A stretch of 40,212 bases of DNA from the IMG/VR virus record IMGVR_UViG_2541047498_000018; one strand, written 5' to 3'. This DNA comes from a virus. Lineage: Duplodnaviria; Heunggongvirae; Uroviricota; Caudoviricetes. Shown in pieces: positions 2,727-40,212 of this stretch; position 1 is the stretch's first letter; each line of letters starts with the position of its first letter. A program made the translations under genes and the position numbers. A model generated the notes under the pieces. That model ran no database searches. It saw only the letters and a list, made by a program, of their open reading frames with translations, and was not told where the DNA came from.

Positions 2727-4766
2727 TTATTCTGTTACCGCTTTTTTCACTTCCACCACAATGCTGTCAATCAGCACCGGGTAAGTTGCATTTTTTGTGA
2801 TATCCGTTACGCGGAGTTTGTCCACCGGGAAAGTTCCTACTGGTGACTGCGTCAGGGTAAACGCGGCACCATCCTGACCATCAATAACCGGAATAACCTG
2901 AAGGCTGTTATTTCCTGCAAAACGGAAGGCCAGCGTATGCCATTCATTATCAAATGCACCAAAGGTTCCCAGTTTCTGGTTATTTGTTGCCACTTTTGCA
3001 TTGTGGTACATCACATTCAGGTCTTTTGCGTCTGTCTGGATGTAGAACGATGCCAGCAGATTATTCCCTGCATCCCCTGTCAGGGTGACACCCTGCGGCA
3101 GAGAGGAAACCGGCCAGTAAAGCCCCATGACATACTGGTTTGCCACCAGGTCGCCAGGTACTTTAAAACGACAACTGATTAAACCACCATTTTTCAGCAG
3201 TTCAGCACCAGTACCGGCATCATGATCCAGATACCAAGATGATTTACCTGTTTCCTTGGTCAGTTTCATTGCCTTACCACCTGTGCCTCCTGCATCACTG
3301 ATAATTTCAGCTTTACCGCCAGCCGGCTCCCAGCCCTGGGCTTTCAGATTTCCTTCTGACTCACTGACACGATAAGACAGCAGTGTTGTGGTTACTGCTT
3401 CAGTTTCTGAAGGTGACGGCACTGGTGCTTCAGTTTCAGAAGATGGAACATCGGCTTTTACTGTGGTTCGCCCCGCATGAGTCAGAACTGCCGTGGCCAG
3501 ACGGTCGGAAATAATCCCACGACGTGCCCATGAACTGAAATGGCTGGCCCGGTCCGCAGATGTCCAGGTGGCGGCACTGTTACGCCACGTTGAGCCGTAA
3601 TAACCAATGGATTCAATATCCGGGTCTTCTGCCGGATTGTTGGTGGGTACATTCGCGTCATTTTCATCTGTCATTAATGGAACGAAATGAATGTTTTTAT
3701 CTGTTTTGTTTTTGTAGCCGCCATAGATTGCCTGGTATGCCGGTTCATTTTTCTGTTTCCAGAAATACGTGGTATCGCCACAAATCCACGGAACGCCAGC
3801 AGCACTGCCACCGGTACACTGTTCCGCCTGTTCAGCCAGGTCTGCGCGGAATTTTTCCACCATCGCCAGAAACAGCGCGGAATGCTCCGTCGGCTTCGCA
3901 TCAATATCAAACTCGCCCTGCATCCACACCACAGCAAGCAGGCGGTTTTTCGGGTTCTTCGCCAGTGCCGCTTTTGTCCGGCTGATTAAGTCCTTATACA
4001 GCGGCTTATCCACACCCCAGCGGGCTGAGTCCTCTGAAGCACCCGTGCTGTCACTGTACGTGCCGTCAGCACCCGCCGTGAATGCAGAACCACCACGGCA
4101 GCAGGGAACCAGCAGAATCCCCGCATCTGCCGGAATAAACGGCAGCAGTTTTTTGGCAATGTGAAGCCCCTGACCCACGGTGCCATATTGCCCTTTAGCC
4201 ACATCCGCTTTCGGGTGATTTTTTCCACTCATATCCTGCACATCATGCAGACAGTGGTCGGCCAGAATGATGTCGTTATACTGACAGGCTTTACCTCCCG
4301 GCGTGACTGTACTGCGACGGGCTAACTGCATAATACGCGGTTCGGGGCGGTCATATGTCTCCGGCAGTGGCAGACCTTCACCGTAAGCCATACCGTTTGA
4401 CTGACCAGCAAGAACCACCACGTAATACCAGGAAGGGGAGCTGGAAGCAGTTTCATTTCCTGACGGACGGGTATGTGTTTCAGCATTATCCCAGTCTGAC
4501 GGTTCAGCAGTACCGGCAACATCAGCACTTAACGGAATGACCGCACCAATACCCGCTCCGGTAATTTCCACACTCGGATCACCGGATACTGGCCTTACCC
4601 ACAGGCAATCCCGTGTATTAAAACTGATGAGACAGTCAGCAAATGTCATTCCTCCTTTTGTTTCGGCCGGAGGAAAGGGAGCCTCAAGAAATGCCGCTGT
4701 ACCACCGGAAACTTTAACAGTAAAGTTTCCGGGCATTGATGATAGTTGAACCCATTTGGACGTCAT
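2727..4766 (-). CDS. SASA/SGNH-family carbohydrate O-acetylesterase (NanS-p-like sialate O-acetylesterase) with C-terminal lectin-like domain
   Basis: 679-aa ORF with VVVLAGQSNGMAYGEG (the GQSN nucleophile motif of SASA esterases), a Ser/Thr/Pro/Glu-rich linker (SETEAPVPSPSETEA) and a roughly 250-aa C-terminal domain. This three-part layout matches prophage NanS-p esterases as recalled. Confidence 0.75.
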   Translation of the reverse strand: MTSKWVQLSSMPGNFTVKVSGGTAAFLEAPFPPAETKGGMTFADCLISFNTRDCLWVRPVSGDPSVEITGAGIGAVIPLSADVAGTAEPSDWDNAETHTRPSGNETASSSPSWYYVVVLAGQSNGMAYGEGLPLPETYDRPEPRIMQLARRSTVTPGGKACQYNDIILADHCLHDVQDMSGKNHPKADVAKGQYGTVGQGLHIAKKLLPFIPADAGILLVPCCRGGSAFTAGADGTYSDSTGASEDSARWGVDKPLYKDLISRTKAALAKNPKNRLLAVVWMQGEFDIDAKPTEHSALFLAMVEKFRADLAEQAEQCTGGSAAGVPWICGDTTYFWKQKNEPAYQAIYGGYKNKTDKNIHFVPLMTDENDANVPTNNPAEDPDIESIGYYGSTWRNSAATWTSADRASHFSSWARRGIISDRLATAVLTHAGRTTVKADVPSSETEAPVPSPSETEAVTTTLLSYRVSESEGNLKAQGWEPAGGKAEIISDAGGTGGKAMKLTKETGKSSWYLDHDAGTGAELLKNGGLISCRFKVPGDLVANQYVMGLYWPVSSLPQGVTLTGDAGNNLLASFYIQTDAKDLNVMYHNAKVATNNQKLGTFGAFDNEWHTLAFRFAGNNSLQVIPVIDGQDGAAFTLTQSPVGTFPVDKLRVTDITKNATYPVLIDSIVVEVKKAVTE

Positions 4767-17881: not shown

Positions 17882-18297
17882 ATGAAGCCCTTCTGGTTGC
17901 GCCCGAATACCGCTGCATCAGACTGAACCTGTGGTAAATCCCCGGATTCAGGGGCCGCACCGTTCGTATCCACACCGACCGGCACATTGCCGTTCATGAC
18001 ATCTTTCAGCCAGGCCAGCGCTTCACGGTAACGGTCACGCGCCTGATCGGAGGCTCGCTGATCGCACAGGTAATAAAAGGCAATCGCGCAACAGTGCTGA
18101 ACAAGAACGGCCGGAATAACCTCCAGCGGCAACGTGTAACGGGCGGACAGATAGCTGTCGATAAGGGCTGACGCATCTGTCAGCGCCCGGTTCAGCTTGC
18201 GCGTGTCCGGCTCATCCGAACGGGGCACAGCCAGTAACGGCCTGAGCAAATCCTCGCGGTAACGCGCCCGCATATCGGTTTCAGTGGCGTAATTCAT
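17878..18297 (-). CDS. Head-tail connector/neck protein (Mu gp36-like, DUF1320-like)
   Basis: 139-aa ORF in the conserved position between the major head gene region and the tail genes. Confidence 0.55.
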   Translation of the reverse strand: MNYATETDMRARYREDLLRPLLAVPRSDEPDTRKLNRALTDASALIDSYLSARYTLPLEVIPAVLVQHCCAIAFYYLCDQRASDQARDRYREALAWLKDVMNGNVPVGVDTNGAAPESGDLPQVQSDAAVFGRNQKGFI

Positions 18298-18711: not shown

Positions 18712-19659
18712 TTACAGATAATCCGCGACAACCAGCTCCAGCTTACCCTTCATCTCGTTAGAGACGGTTGCGTTTCCGTCTGCGAACAGTTCACGCTCCA
18801 GCAGCTGCACCGCCTGTTTTTCCAGCGAGGTGGGGACAACAATATGGGTGGGTTTAATGCCGAGTTTGCGGCCACCGTCAGCGGTAAATTCGCGCATGGC
18901 TGACCAGCCGTGCCACAGTGCATCCAGCGTCAGCGGTGACTGCATCATGTAGGCCATCTGCCAGAAGCCGTAGCCCACATTGCGACGGGCGGATGCACCA
19001 AACACAAATTCGTTATCGGTGAATGCGCGACCTTCATCGACTTTGGTCTGGGCAACCAGTTCAGCCTTACGGCGATCCTGATAAATCAGCGGTTTTACCG
19101 CGCGGGAGCAGTCAAGCAGATACCAGGCCGGACCGCTGTAATCAGCCTGTGCGCCGACAGAGCCGGTTTTTGCCACAAACATATTGCTGACCATCTGCGC
19201 ATCCCCGGAGCCATCCACTTTGGGGTAAACCGGATGTTCGGTATCAAAGAAGTTCTGACCGTCATAGCAGGCCGCACTGATCCCGTCACGCAGGGCAGCA
19301 AAGACCAGCTCATCCGGTTGTACCGCCGCAGCGCGCCCCATCTCCTGGAACAACGGGGAATAAATACCGAGGTTGTCGTCTTCGAAGTCATCGCGGCTAA
19401 TGGCGACAGTGCCTTCAAAAGTTTTGTTCACGATGGCATAGCCATAGGCTTTCATCTTCTCGATGACGCGGGAGCCGATCCACTCACGGAACTGCGGGAA
19501 CTGCCCCAGCCAGCCGTAGGTGTTGGATTTCGATGTGGAGGGCACGGTCATCGCAATTTTTTTATACTGCGACGGGGCCATGGACATCCCGGCCTGAAAA
19601 TCAGAACGGTAGCCCGTCATCAGGGCTGTGATCATCGCCGGTGTAATCGGGGTAGGCAT
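18712..19659 (-). CDS. Major head (capsid) protein (Mu T-like)
   Basis: 315-aa ORF immediately downstream of the protease/scaffold gene, at the Mu T position and size. Confidence 0.8.
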   Translation of the reverse strand: MPTPITPAMITALMTGYRSDFQAGMSMAPSQYKKIAMTVPSTSKSNTYGWLGQFPQFREWIGSRVIEKMKAYGYAIVNKTFEGTVAISRDDFEDDNLGIYSPLFQEMGRAAAVQPDELVFAALRDGISAACYDGQNFFDTEHPVYPKVDGSGDAQMVSNMFVAKTGSVGAQADYSGPAWYLLDCSRAVKPLIYQDRRKAELVAQTKVDEGRAFTDNEFVFGASARRNVGYGFWQMAYMMQSPLTLDALWHGWSAMREFTADGGRKLGIKPTHIVVPTSLEKQAVQLLERELFADGNATVSNEMKGKLELVVADYL

Positions 19660-20783
19660 TATTGCATTTCCTCTTTCATTTTCAGGAACTCGGCTTCGGT
19701 TTTACCCAGCAGTTTGGCGGCCGCGATATCTTCAGCCGACAGCGCAGCGGTGGCAGTCTTTTTATCCGGCACGGTCACGGTGTCGGTCTGAAGAGAGGTC
19801 AGGGCCGCAACCGGCTGGCGGGCGTCAAGCTGTGCAGAAAGTGCCGCAACGCCAATCTGCCCGCCCAGTTGTTCCAGATAGCCGCGTTCGCTTTTGAAGA
19901 TGCGCCCTTCGGATTCAGCCTTGTCCAGCACCTGCTCCAGCGTGGTGCTGCCGTGCTGCGCCGACAGCGCAACGTATTCGGTACGCAGGGCGTTATACGT
20001 TTCAACGGGCACGTATTTCGTCAGATCAATAATGCCGCCAGCCGGTGTGCCTTTTGCGGTTTCCAGCTCTGCCGACAGACTGGCGACCTGTGTTTTCAGG
20101 TTGTCGTGTGCATCCGCACGGGTTTTGATCCCGGTGAGGGCAGACAGCGCCGCCGTGCCCAGCTCCGGCGTAAATTCGTCACCGTCAGCCACGGTCAGAC
20201 CGAGCGCCGTCAGCAACTGGCGTAATTGCTCATTCATGGAGGTATCCTTTAAAGGAGGGTTTAAGGCGTTATAAAGGTCATCCGCCGACAGCGCGGCGAC
20301 AGGATTCATGCCGGTCAGACCGGGGTCACCGGTAATAGCCAGCATCCGAAGTTCGACAGGTTCGCCGGTGTTCTCGTCATAGCCAATCACCGGTGAAAAC
20401 CAGGGGAATTCGTTATTACGCAGATGTTCAAGGGCCGGAGGGTTCCACTTCGGGCGCACCTCGAAGCCACGCTCTTCACTGAAGCGAAAATTCTCCGGTG
20501 AGGCCATCACAAAACCGGCAGCCGGTGCCTGATGCCCCTTAATCAGGGTCTGGTGGTTGTAGTCAATTTTCACCGGCTGATTGAGCGCCACAACCCGGGA
20601 TACCATGCGCTCAACGGTCGCACGGTTAATCAGCCAGCCCTCGGCCGGTTTTTCCGGGCGACCGTCACGGGCCTTTACCCGACCGGCTGGCATGATCTGA
20701 CACCAGTCACCGTCCCCGTCTGCGGACAGGCTGATGGCATTCAGAATGGCATAAGCAAGTTTGGGCGTGTTTTTCGTCTTCAT
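19659..20783 (-). CDS. Head maturation protease / scaffold protein (Mu I-like, with nested Z-like C-terminal scaffold region)
   Basis: 374-aa ORF between the G-like gene and the major head gene. Ala/Leu-rich, coiled-coil-like C-terminal half. Confidence 0.7.
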   Translation of the reverse strand: MKTKNTPKLAYAILNAISLSADGDGDWCQIMPAGRVKARDGRPEKPAEGWLINRATVERMVSRVVALNQPVKIDYNHQTLIKGHQAPAAGFVMASPENFRFSEERGFEVRPKWNPPALEHLRNNEFPWFSPVIGYDENTGEPVELRMLAITGDPGLTGMNPVAALSADDLYNALNPPLKDTSMNEQLRQLLTALGLTVADGDEFTPELGTAALSALTGIKTRADAHDNLKTQVASLSAELETAKGTPAGGIIDLTKYVPVETYNALRTEYVALSAQHGSTTLEQVLDKAESEGRIFKSERGYLEQLGGQIGVAALSAQLDARQPVAALTSLQTDTVTVPDKKTATAALSAEDIAAAKLLGKTEAEFLKMKEEMQ

Positions 20784-20959
20784 TCCGGCAGCATAAGCCG
20801 GGAATTTTCAGGGCGGGTTTTGCGGGATTTCAGGAAGTGCTTCCAGGGGAAAAATACAAAGGCGCTTCACGCAGATTTTAAAGCCCGTTAAATACAGGTT
20901 AGAAAATCACGACACGCGCCTGAAGGGGGTAAGGTAATGCATTTGCATACCTTAAACAA

Positions 20960-21433
20960 TTAAGGCGTTTCTGTGGCCTTTTTAAAGCGTTTTCTGATTT
21001 CGTCCATGATCTCCTGCTCTGCCACCTGATCAAAGCCCATATACGGGCGTGCGCCAATGGCCGCCGGTCCCGGTGGCATACCAGGCAGGCCACCCCACTG
21101 ATGAATGGCCGCATAAGGCTCATTTGATCCAATCAGCGCCCAGGTATCGCCATAATCCGTGGTCAGGCGTCGGGCCAGATCGCCGTTCAGCGTCAGGATT
21201 TTGCCGGGCATGTATCCCTTACGGGTACGCCACTTGCGGTAAGGATCTGACCAGTCATGCCAGCGTTCGCCGTCCGGCTCTTTTTCCTGTTCAAACGCCA
21301 TTTCTGACGATGACAGAAGACTCGCCGCCACACTGCGGGCCAGGTCTTTCCCTCCACCCACAAACTGAAGCCGGGCAAAGACCCGCTGGAGACGCGTAAC
21401 GTCAACAACGACAGCGGCATCAATGGATGACAT
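20960..21433 (-). CDS. Virion morphogenesis protein (Mu G-like)
   Basis: 157-aa ORF downstream of the Mu-F-like gene, followed by a 176-bp non-coding gap before the protease gene. Confidence 0.6.
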   Translation of the reverse strand: MSSIDAAVVVDVTRLQRVFARLQFVGGGKDLARSVAASLLSSSEMAFEQEKEPDGERWHDWSDPYRKWRTRKGYMPGKILTLNGDLARRLTTDYGDTWALIGSNEPYAAIHQWGGLPGMPPGPAAIGARPYMGFDQVAEQEIMDEIRKRFKKATETP

Positions 21434-21554
21434 ATTGCCTCCGCATAAAGGATGAATATAAAATAAACAGGCGGTCAGTGTACGCTTAACTGGTAAAGTC
21501 GGTGCCTGCCTCCGGGTGGATCATGTATGCGGGTTCAACCCCCGCCACTGACCG

Positions 21555-28686: not shown

Positions 28687-28757
28687 TGTTACGCTGTCTC
28701 ATGATGTTCTCTGAGTCAGCGTAACGGTGAAGGAGAGGCGGCAGGCTTTGCGGAATA

Positions 28758-29183
28758 TCAGAAAAGTGGCGGTTGCGTTCTTACCAGATGCAGACGGCGC
28801 TGTTCGCGTATGACGGTATAAATCTGGGTTTCTGACATCCGGTAATGGCGGCGAAGGGATTCAATTTTCTCGCCCCGGTCCCAGCGCGAAAATATCTCAT
28901 TGTTTCGCAGCTCGGCAAAGAGAGATTCCCCGACCGGCAGGTAATAACCCCGTCCGCCCATATAGGCGGCCTGAGCCGCAGCCACCTTGCGTGCCAGTTT
29001 ACCGGCCAGTACCGGCTCAATCCCCTGACGCTGAAGTTCTGCGCCGGTGACTTCAACCAGTTCTGACAGGGTCCGCGGCCAGTTCTTTTTGAGAACATCA
29101 TCAGGGATGTCATCAAGGCGGTCGATAAGGGCGTGCAGTTGCTCACTGTCACCACCAAACATGCTCATCTGAGTTTCTGCCAT
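28758..29183 (-). CDS. mor: Mor/C-family transcription activator (middle/late gene activator)
   Basis: 141 aa with YMGGRGYYLPVG and a C-terminal HTH (MSETQIYTVIREQRR), matching the Mor/C family as recalled. Located between the GemA-like gene and the lysis genes. Confidence 0.7.
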   Translation of the reverse strand: MAETQMSMFGGDSEQLHALIDRLDDIPDDVLKKNWPRTLSELVEVTGAELQRQGIEPVLAGKLARKVAAAQAAYMGGRGYYLPVGESLFAELRNNEIFSRWDRGEKIESLRRHYRMSETQIYTVIREQRRLHLVRTQPPLF

Positions 29184-39747: not shown

Positions 39748-40212
39748 GGTTACAAATACCCCCACAATTTATTCAGCTACAACACCAGAGAATAATCCGC
39801 CTCAGTTGGTTGCCAGCCTCGTCCCTGATGAACAGCGCATCAGCTTCTGGCCGCAGCATTTTGGCCTCATTCCACAGTGGGTCACCCTGGAGCCCCGTGT
39901 CTTCGGCTGGATGGACCGTCTGTGCGAAGACTACTGCGGTGGTATCTGGAATCTGTACACCCTGAACAACGGCGGGGCATTTATGGCCCCCGAACCGGAT
40001 GATGATGATGACGAAACATGGGTACTGTTCAATGCCATGAACGGTAACCGCGCTGAAATGAGCCCGGAAGCCGCCGGTATTGCCGCCTGTCTGATGACGT
40101 ACAGCCATCATGCCTGTCGTACGGAGAATTATGCCATGACGGTCCATTATTACCGGTTGCGGGATTACGCCCTGCAGCATCCGGAAGGCAGCGCCATTAT
40201 GCGCATCATTGA
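39737..40212 (+). CDS. Partial CDS: antirestriction protein (KlcA/ArdB family, YfjX/YafX-like); 3' end beyond the window
   Basis: Plus-strand frame is open from the ATG at 39737 to the window end. Translation ...WPQHFGLIPQWVTLEPRVFGWMDRLCEDYCGGIWNLYTLNNGGAFMAPEPDDDDDETWVLFNAMNGNRAEMSPEAAGIAACLMTYSHHACRTENYAMTVHYYRLRDYALQHPEGSAIMRII matches CP4-type island antirestriction proteins as recalled. The in-frame ATG lies inside the terminal repeat, so the native start is uncertain. Confidence 0.7.
   Translation, partial: MIHLVTNTPTIYSATTPENNPPQLVASLVPDEQRISFWPQHFGLIPQWVTLEPRVFGWMDRLCEDYCGGIWNLYTLNNGGAFMAPEPDDDDDETWVLFNAMNGNRAEMSPEAAGIAACLMTYSHHACRTENYAMTVHYYRLRDYALQHPEGSAIMRII

Follow-up and report, generated by a model that had tools for sequence, protein, structure and literature searches.

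[quoted passage not shown] Earlier work on the same sequence has already established this reading: within its gyrase-site part the gap is base-for-base the sequence found in Escherichia coli O157:H7 Sakai, so that what an earlier note on this DNA had put forward as a candidate is the known Sp18 SGS. The proposal draws support from a match of 175 of 176 positions to Sakai Sp18, the homology of the right arm to that of Mu, the phased T/A tracts, and the central position of the gap in the element. According to a 2023 review citing Oram & Pato 2004, the SGS of the Sakai Mu-like prophage was the only foreign site tested that replaced the Mu SGS and promoted Mu replication, and the essential determinant of the Mu SGS is its right arm, not its left arm. 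Gyrase may be expected to act in the same way at the gap of the window, as read across from this literature on an identical sequence. The Sakai fragment tested as a replacement for the Mu SGS is presumably the G-I spacer described here. Candidate sites including that of Sakai were reportedly cleaved specifically by gyrase both in vitro and in vivo, and the central sites of Haemophilus and Salmonella Mu-like prophages are said not to have worked as an SGS.

No natural gyrase site stronger than the Mu SGS is known, and it serves as a standard substrate for studies of gyrase mechanics. If the mechanism derived from work on Mu applies, DNA gyrase would bind the gap and cleave no more than ~30 bp past the G stop codon, and the phased T/A tracts of the right arm would be wrapped around a GyrA C-terminal domain, leading to highly processive supercoiling. 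The prophage would then be extruded by supercoiling into a loop that has the SGS at its apex, and the loop would join the two phage ends for transpososome assembly and replicative transposition. Recognition of the gap as an SGS guards against its mis-annotation as empty sequence or as a hidden gene.

Genomic context of the G-I gap

The gap occupies positions 20784-20959, exactly where the earlier note had placed it: in the ORF list the G-like gene ends at 20960 and the I-like gene starts at 20783, both on the minus strand, which is the strand of all late genes in the window. The G-like virion morphogenesis gene (20960-21433, minus strand; Pfam PF05069, E 9e-34), after whose stop codon the gap begins, encodes a protein with 55% identity to Mu G, and the I-like protease/scaffold gene (19659-20783, minus strand; ATG at 20781-20783) matches the Mu-like prophage I protein family (PF10123, E 1.5e-76). 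Read on the same strand, the gap appears to be a composite regulatory and topological element, and it corresponds to positions 5059233-5059408 of the Sakai chromosome, within Sp18. No spacer of the late region is longer, but there are others, of 121 bp between F and G and of 71 bp before the lysis gene.

The F-G gap (21434-21554), which has no equivalent in Mu, holds a tRNA-like gene (21474-21553, plus strand) that is antisense to the late operon and scores 30.9 bits against the Rfam tRNA model (gathering threshold 29). Its anticodon region is aberrantly long; ARAGORN made no call for it, and PGAP annotates a 'tRNA-OTHER' at the same spot in related prophages. A sigma-70-like sequence, TTGCCT-18-TAAAAT (21435-21464, plus strand), lies just upstream of this gene.

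The statement that no ORF lies in the G-I gap held for credible ORFs: it is touched only by two late-strand ORFs, of 20 aa (GTG start) and 23 aa (TTG start), and by the tail end of an antisense ORF. These two tiny ORFs, together with the finding that RNA of the gap folds better than shuffled sequence (z -3.3), would be the case for a small protein-coding or small RNA gene hidden in the gap. Such a gene is extremely improbable, since both ORFs lack an ATG as well as a Shine-Dalgarno sequence, and since the length of the gap varies between 175, 176 and 177 bp in close relatives (24 IMG/VR copies of the Sp18 type) with substitutions that follow no codon pattern. An Rfam search of the gap gave no match, identical O157 prophages carry no RefSeq/PGAP annotation in the equivalent gap, and the palindromic T/A tracts, with the two hairpins described below, account for the folding signal.

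The prophage in the window is a Sp18-type Mu-like prophage of the E. coli O157 type. The genes are ordered as in a transposable prophage of the Mu type, from the c repressor through ner, A and B to mom, and over 1.2 kb around the gap many chromosomes of O157:H7 and other Shiga-toxin-producing E. coli are 100% identical to the window. The same G-I junction is present in 228 of 5,426 complete E. coli genomes (~4%), and among the rows sampled the carriers of the Sp18 type belong largely to Shiga-toxin-producing lineages. Sp18 itself is the only Mu-like prophage of Sakai, located within sorM (5040971-5079729). Its G-I gap is also 176 bp long, and the first 164 nt, and with them the whole of the gyrase-site part, are identical to those of the window; the sole difference is at window position 20796, which is T here and C in Sakai. 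This position is the first loop nucleotide of the small hairpin preceding gene I, just upstream of the predicted -10 hexamer, and the polymorphism recurs in other copies.

The Sakai SGS and that of the window are the same element in copies transposed to different chromosomal sites. The prophage of the window, ~39.3 kb in length, extends from its c end at 39754 (...GGTTACA) to its mom end at ~480, and its copy adjoins a gene annotated as frvR, whereas the Sakai copy lies in sorM. The phage end ...GGTTACA is common to both copies and the flanks are not, as expected of a transposing phage, and the differing flanks indicate that the same phage type has transposed to different sites. Location of the prophage of the window at the Sakai locus was considered and rejected, Sakai having an intact frvR-frvX region and Sp18 in sorM; a BLAST comparison of the window flanks with the frvR-frvX region of Sakai gave no match. 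A candidate 5-bp target duplication was noted at the prophage ends (AATAC on one side and an AATAT-like sequence on the other), the mom-side end being approximate. Two records of Stx-converting phages (LC727881.1 and LC727895.1) carry the annotation 'inserted Bacteriophage Mu-like phage', and the G-I region of this insert is 93% identical to that of the window, which indicates that Sp18-type phages transpose into other prophages too.

Cleavage core and phased right arm

The gap lies near the centre of the element, as the earlier note had stated: it is 18.8 kb from the c end of the ~39.3-kb prophage (48%), and the SGS is found at 47% of the length of Sakai Sp18 and 48.7% of that of Mu. The G-I gap of Mu, at 196 bp, is 20 bp longer than that of the window and is arranged in the order of gyrase cut site, predicted terminator and late promoter (in Mu coordinates, G end 17859; annotated gyrase cut 17879/17880; terminator 17908-17953; P_I 17977-18043; I start 18056). 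The Mu cut falls 20 nt after the G stop codon, and the zone of the window in which the cleavage core is expected by this measure holds an imperfect palindrome, AAGGTATGCA-AA-TGCATTACCTT (20931-20953); in the Mu register the cut of the top strand is expected near 20940, an approximate position. Similarity to the Mu SGS was borne out for the right arm (a block of 23/27) but not for the cleavage core, which matches Mu at only 6 of 30 positions in register and is unrelated to it in sequence. A change within the Mu core, nuB103, is tolerated. The inner palindrome after the G stop codon was also considered as an RNA hairpin and was dismissed because it varies among Sp18-type copies without compensation.

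The putative right arm of the SGS (20876-20912) consists of phased T-tract/A-tract junctions located 57, 70 and 80 nt after the G stop codon. A 27-nt block within it, CGTGATTTTCTAACCTGTATTTAACGG (20885-20911), is 85% identical (23 of 27) to the right arm of Mu at the same distance from the G stop codon (nt 49-75). In a test of the local alignment between the Mu and window gaps by 1000 dinucleotide shuffles, none reached the score, and the best ungapped register with Mu was that of zero shift over the first 105 nt, with 47% identity compared to a mean of 26% for other shifts. The corresponding junctions of Mu are at 37, 58 and 70 nt, and so the offsets of 57-58 and 70 nt are common to Mu and the window, whereas Mu has a first T/A tract (nt ~31-41) that is missing from the Sp18 type, in which a further distal tract is present at ~80 nt.

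The same organization extends to relatives gathered by means of the G protein, which contributed 59 distinct G-I gaps (G identity 41-100%), all with a spacer of 135-238 bp except for one of 676 bp. The gap is thus more than a product of chance. Nearly all of the 59 gaps possess a set of T-tract/A-tract junctions (TTTTTAAA, TTTTGAAA and similar sequences) at fixed offsets, such as 39/59/70 or 35/56/67/77 nt after the G stop codon in members other than Mu and the Sp18 type, and every spacing within an arm is 9-13 or 20-22 bp, equivalent to one or two helical turns. This phased set is what has been described in Mu as an anisotropically bendable right arm. In a set of 20 distinct copies of the Sp18 type, the lowest nucleotide diversity (pi) of the gap is that of the right arm (0.021); for comparison, pi is 0.071 for G at third codon positions and reaches 0.147 in the spacer after the right arm. 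What these comparisons would add to the known site is that the G-I spacer appears, throughout the family, to be a conserved composite of a variable core, a phased right arm that doubles as a terminator hairpin, a variable linker and a late promoter. With its phased T/A triplet, variable cores and overlapping terminator, the set of 59 gaps shows which features are invariant and may help to define what makes a gyrase site 'strong'.

Motif models did not distinguish the gap. A W/S template made from the printed consensus of the 130-bp E. coli gyrase-binding motif (Sutormin et al. 2019) was crude, placing the Mu site at rank 2-3 and 5 bp off, and it did not rank the gap high. An nhmmer profile of 34 gaps that are not of the Sp18 type matched the gap of the window only at non-significant values (E 0.3-0.7).

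Read on the strand opposite to G, the 3' end of its coding sequence contains further T/A tracts (CTTAAAC, CTTTTTAAAG and GTTTTCTGATTTC, within 20931-20992, plus strand) at roughly helical spacing from the palindrome. The ATCAGAAAACGC part of these tracts is also found in Mu. Because of these tracts, the left arm of the SGS also looks arm-like.

Terminator-like hairpin and late promoter of gene I

The right-arm sequence is predicted to fold, as RNA of the late strand, into a long imperfect hairpin (20860-20921; -23.7 kcal/mol) that is followed by UUUGUAUUUUU (20850-20860), the two together spanning 20850-20921 on the minus strand. This combination is probably the intrinsic terminator of the lys-to-G late transcript, which would end at the U-run after the right-arm hairpin. 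The arrangement is like that of Mu, where TransTermHP calls a terminator over the right arm and the late promoter P_I comes next. A clearer hairpin, closing directly on a T-run, is seen in several relatives; automated detection of the T-run and hairpin was usable only for Mu and lineages of the L085, L096 and L123 types, the T tracts of the right arm being confusing in several lineages. A simple promoter and terminator scan (loops of up to 8 nt; sigma-70) called neither a terminator nor a full promoter in the gap, because the loop of the terminator is long and the promoter has no -35 element; since the scan makes no terminator call, termination is graded as probable.

The last ~70 bp of the gap would constitute a P_I-type late promoter dependent on the C-family activator of the phage. 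A late-activator (C-type) box, CTGAAATCCCGCAAAACCCGCC (20812-20833, minus strand), corresponds to the P_I box of Mu, GCATAACCCC, and is followed by a predicted P_I-like -10 hexamer, TATGCT (20790-20795, minus strand), which ends 6 nt before the ATG of I and has the geometry of Mu P_I if the box is aligned on TAA, the alignment of box and hexamer with Mu being ambiguous by 1-2 nt. The four late promoters of Mu (P_lys, P_I, P_P and P_mom) have CATAA(C/T)CCC 30 nt upstream of the -10 hexamer, and the dyad to which C binds has its centre at -43.5 (Margolin et al. 1989; Jiang & Howe 2008). The box of the window differs from these in sequence (CCGCAAAnCC), but it is related to CATAACCCC of the Mu late promoters, its GCAAAACCCG agrees with the Mu P_I box at 8 of 10 positions, and it is placed as expected for a site centred near -43.5. 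Both the P_I-like promoter and the late promoters of Mu have a -10 element without a -35 element.

An internal comparison is provided by a P_lys-like late promoter (28702-28761, minus strand), with a box, CTGATATTCCGCAAAGCCTGCC, at 28740-28761 and a -10 hexamer, TACGCT, at 28702-28707. This second box is upstream of the lysis gene and downstream of a Mor/C-family gene (28758-29183; PF08765), which is the position of P_lys in Mu. The two boxes, the only matches in the window, have 18 of 22 bases in common, the distance from box to hexamer is equal in the two promoters, and both hexamers fit TAnGCT. For the 100 nt upstream of I, the best non-self match on the minus strand is the region upstream of lys, with a score reached by one of 2000 shuffles. 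Dependence of the P_I-like promoter on C is suggested by these sequence likenesses. A search of the window with the box pattern found no counterparts of P_P and P_mom, which leaves two of the four late promoters that Mu has. The earlier note had proposed the SGS and described the small hairpin in the gap; it had missed the terminator-like hairpin, the P_I-type promoter, the location of the -10 hexamer within the small hairpin, and the lack of similarity of the core to Mu.

The terminator-like hairpin and the promoter box fill most of the gap, which favours an interpretation as an ordinary late-operon boundary made up of a terminator and an activator-dependent promoter, where the T/A tracts would be parts of a terminator stem or UP-like elements and gyrase would have no special role. 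The dissimilarity of the cleavage core to Mu points in the same direction, as do the two gyrase-motif tests (template and profile) that failed to single out the gap and the central sites of Haemophilus and Salmonella prophages that reportedly are not SGSs. This interpretation is nevertheless unlikely, because the identical sequence of Sakai is reported to substitute for the Mu SGS, because the central position is kept in three phages of different length, and because the phasing of the tracts at multiples of the helical repeat is kept in the 59 gaps even where the stems differ, which is more than a terminator alone requires. An SGS overlaid on the operon boundary is the preferred reading.

The small hairpin and the start of the I mRNA

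The small hairpin CCGGC-AGCATAA-GCCGG pointed out in the earlier note is real (20785-20801, minus strand) and ends one base from the start codon of I; its inverted repeat encloses the predicted -10 hexamer. About ten lineages have different stems in the same place, among them GACCGCC/GGCGGTC, TCCCCC/GGGGGA, CCGCCG/TGGTGG, ACCGGCG/TGCCGGT, GCTGCC/GGCGGC, TTGCC/GGCAG and ATTGCC/GGCGAT, each with a p value of 0.003-0.05 in a shuffle test of its own lineage. These per-lineage shuffles took the place of a column-wise count of covariation, which was dropped because the register of the stem slides by 1-2 columns between lineages. When type-B relatives, which have the same arrangement, are aligned on the ATG, the columns of the box, of an nAnnnT hexamer and of the ATG coincide, and the hexamers (TATGCT, TAAGCT, TACGAT, CACACT, GACAAT, CAGAAT and CAAAAT) are always within a GC-rich inverted repeat. 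The arrangement of a hexamer inside the repeat, 6-7 nt before the ATG and with no Shine-Dalgarno sequence, was seen in the window (20781-20801, minus strand) and in loci L075-L093 and L123-L130.

The ATG of I (20781-20783) is not preceded by a Shine-Dalgarno sequence, and the geometry of Mu P_I, with the box aligned on TAA, would place the start of transcription at the A of this codon. The end of the -10 hexamer 6 nt before the ATG argues for a leaderless mRNA of the I protease in these phages, to which about even odds may be given. If the mRNA is leaderless, the small hairpin lies outside it and would act either in DNA or in read-through RNA. In Mu and in a second group of relatives, in contrast to the window, where the promoter abuts the ATG, the -10 hexamer is followed by a hairpin-forming leader of 26-30 nt (26 nt in Mu); other differences of the window from the late promoters of Mu are the inverted repeat around the -10 hexamer and a transcript predicted to begin with the A of the ATG. 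The mRNA of lambda cI transcribed from P_RM is a leaderless phage mRNA, and the window resembles it in having its predicted start at the A of the AUG and no Shine-Dalgarno sequence. Unlike that of lambda cI, the start in the window is a predicted one, and the promoter would be activator-dependent, would serve a late structural gene, and has its -10 hexamer flanked by an inverted repeat.

Within gene I, an internal start for a Z-like scaffold protein (20235-20237, minus strand; residue 183 of I, MNEQLRQ...) has an AAGGA Shine-Dalgarno sequence 7 nt upstream. This conserved internal start is the equivalent of the start of the Mu scaffold protein Z, where a Shine-Dalgarno sequence is likewise present. 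The combination of a -10 hexamer in a repeat and a leaderless protease mRNA beside a scaffold start driven by a Shine-Dalgarno sequence raises a hypothesis of how the ratio of protease to scaffold might be set. In a more far-reaching and unlikely scheme, the I mRNA of Sp18-type and many other Mu-like phages would be leaderless and made from an activator-dependent promoter whose -10 hexamer is enclosed in a conserved, co-varying GC-rich repeat; the repeat would be sensitive to supercoiling (as a cruciform or a discriminator that is hard to melt) and would couple expression of the head genes to the negative supercoiling produced by the SGS located ~130 bp upstream. If this scheme were true, the SGS would serve transcription as well as transposition.

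The accessory-gene position at the G-I junction

The position regarded in the earlier note as an empty hotspot for accessory genes is indeed empty here: the junction is uninterrupted in the 33 sampled E. coli rows with full coverage (drawn from 229 records) and in the 24 Sp18-type IMG/VR copies. The analogy drawn with the anti-CRISPR junction of Pseudomonas phages is sound with respect to position, since the accessory-gene region RGP G of Pseudomonas Mu-like phages (the D3112/JBD30 group) reportedly lies between the homologues of G and I and would thus occupy the same syntenic junction, G-like followed by protease/scaffold. That anti-CRISPR genes are found in RGP G is documented in a paper on Pseudomonas Mu-like phages. 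Unlike RGP G, the junction contains no gene in the window or in any Sp18-type copy examined.

Gene insertions at this junction were looked for in related prophages, and one was found in an Edwardsiella relative that carries an ORF of 117 aa between the SGS/terminator and promoter parts. This insert and the anti-CRISPR genes of RGP G, given its reported placement between G and I, would be compatible with the gap being a landing pad for accessory (moron or anti-defence) genes, or the scar of such genes, emptied by loss. That origin is very unlikely because the length of the gap is tightly held in enterobacterial relatives (175-177 bp in the Sp18 type and 135-238 bp in others), no remnant of a coding sequence is present, the sequence is accounted for by functional elements, and the junction is unbroken in every fully covered E. 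coli row sampled. A central SGS at a late operon boundary is again the preferred reading of the gap.

The Edwardsiella ORF is located at 3159-3512 (minus strand) of the Edwardsiella anguillarum locus L010 (equivalent to L043 and L083), on the opposite strand and in AT-rich DNA, and brings the gap to 676 bp. Neither a Pfam nor a PADLOC match was obtained for its product. The product has a hydrophobic N-terminus, and the point of insertion falls exactly where the gyrase-site/terminator part gives way to the promoter part; lying at a junction where Pseudomonas phages carry their anti-CRISPRs, the ORF may be a moron or a gene of anti-defence function.
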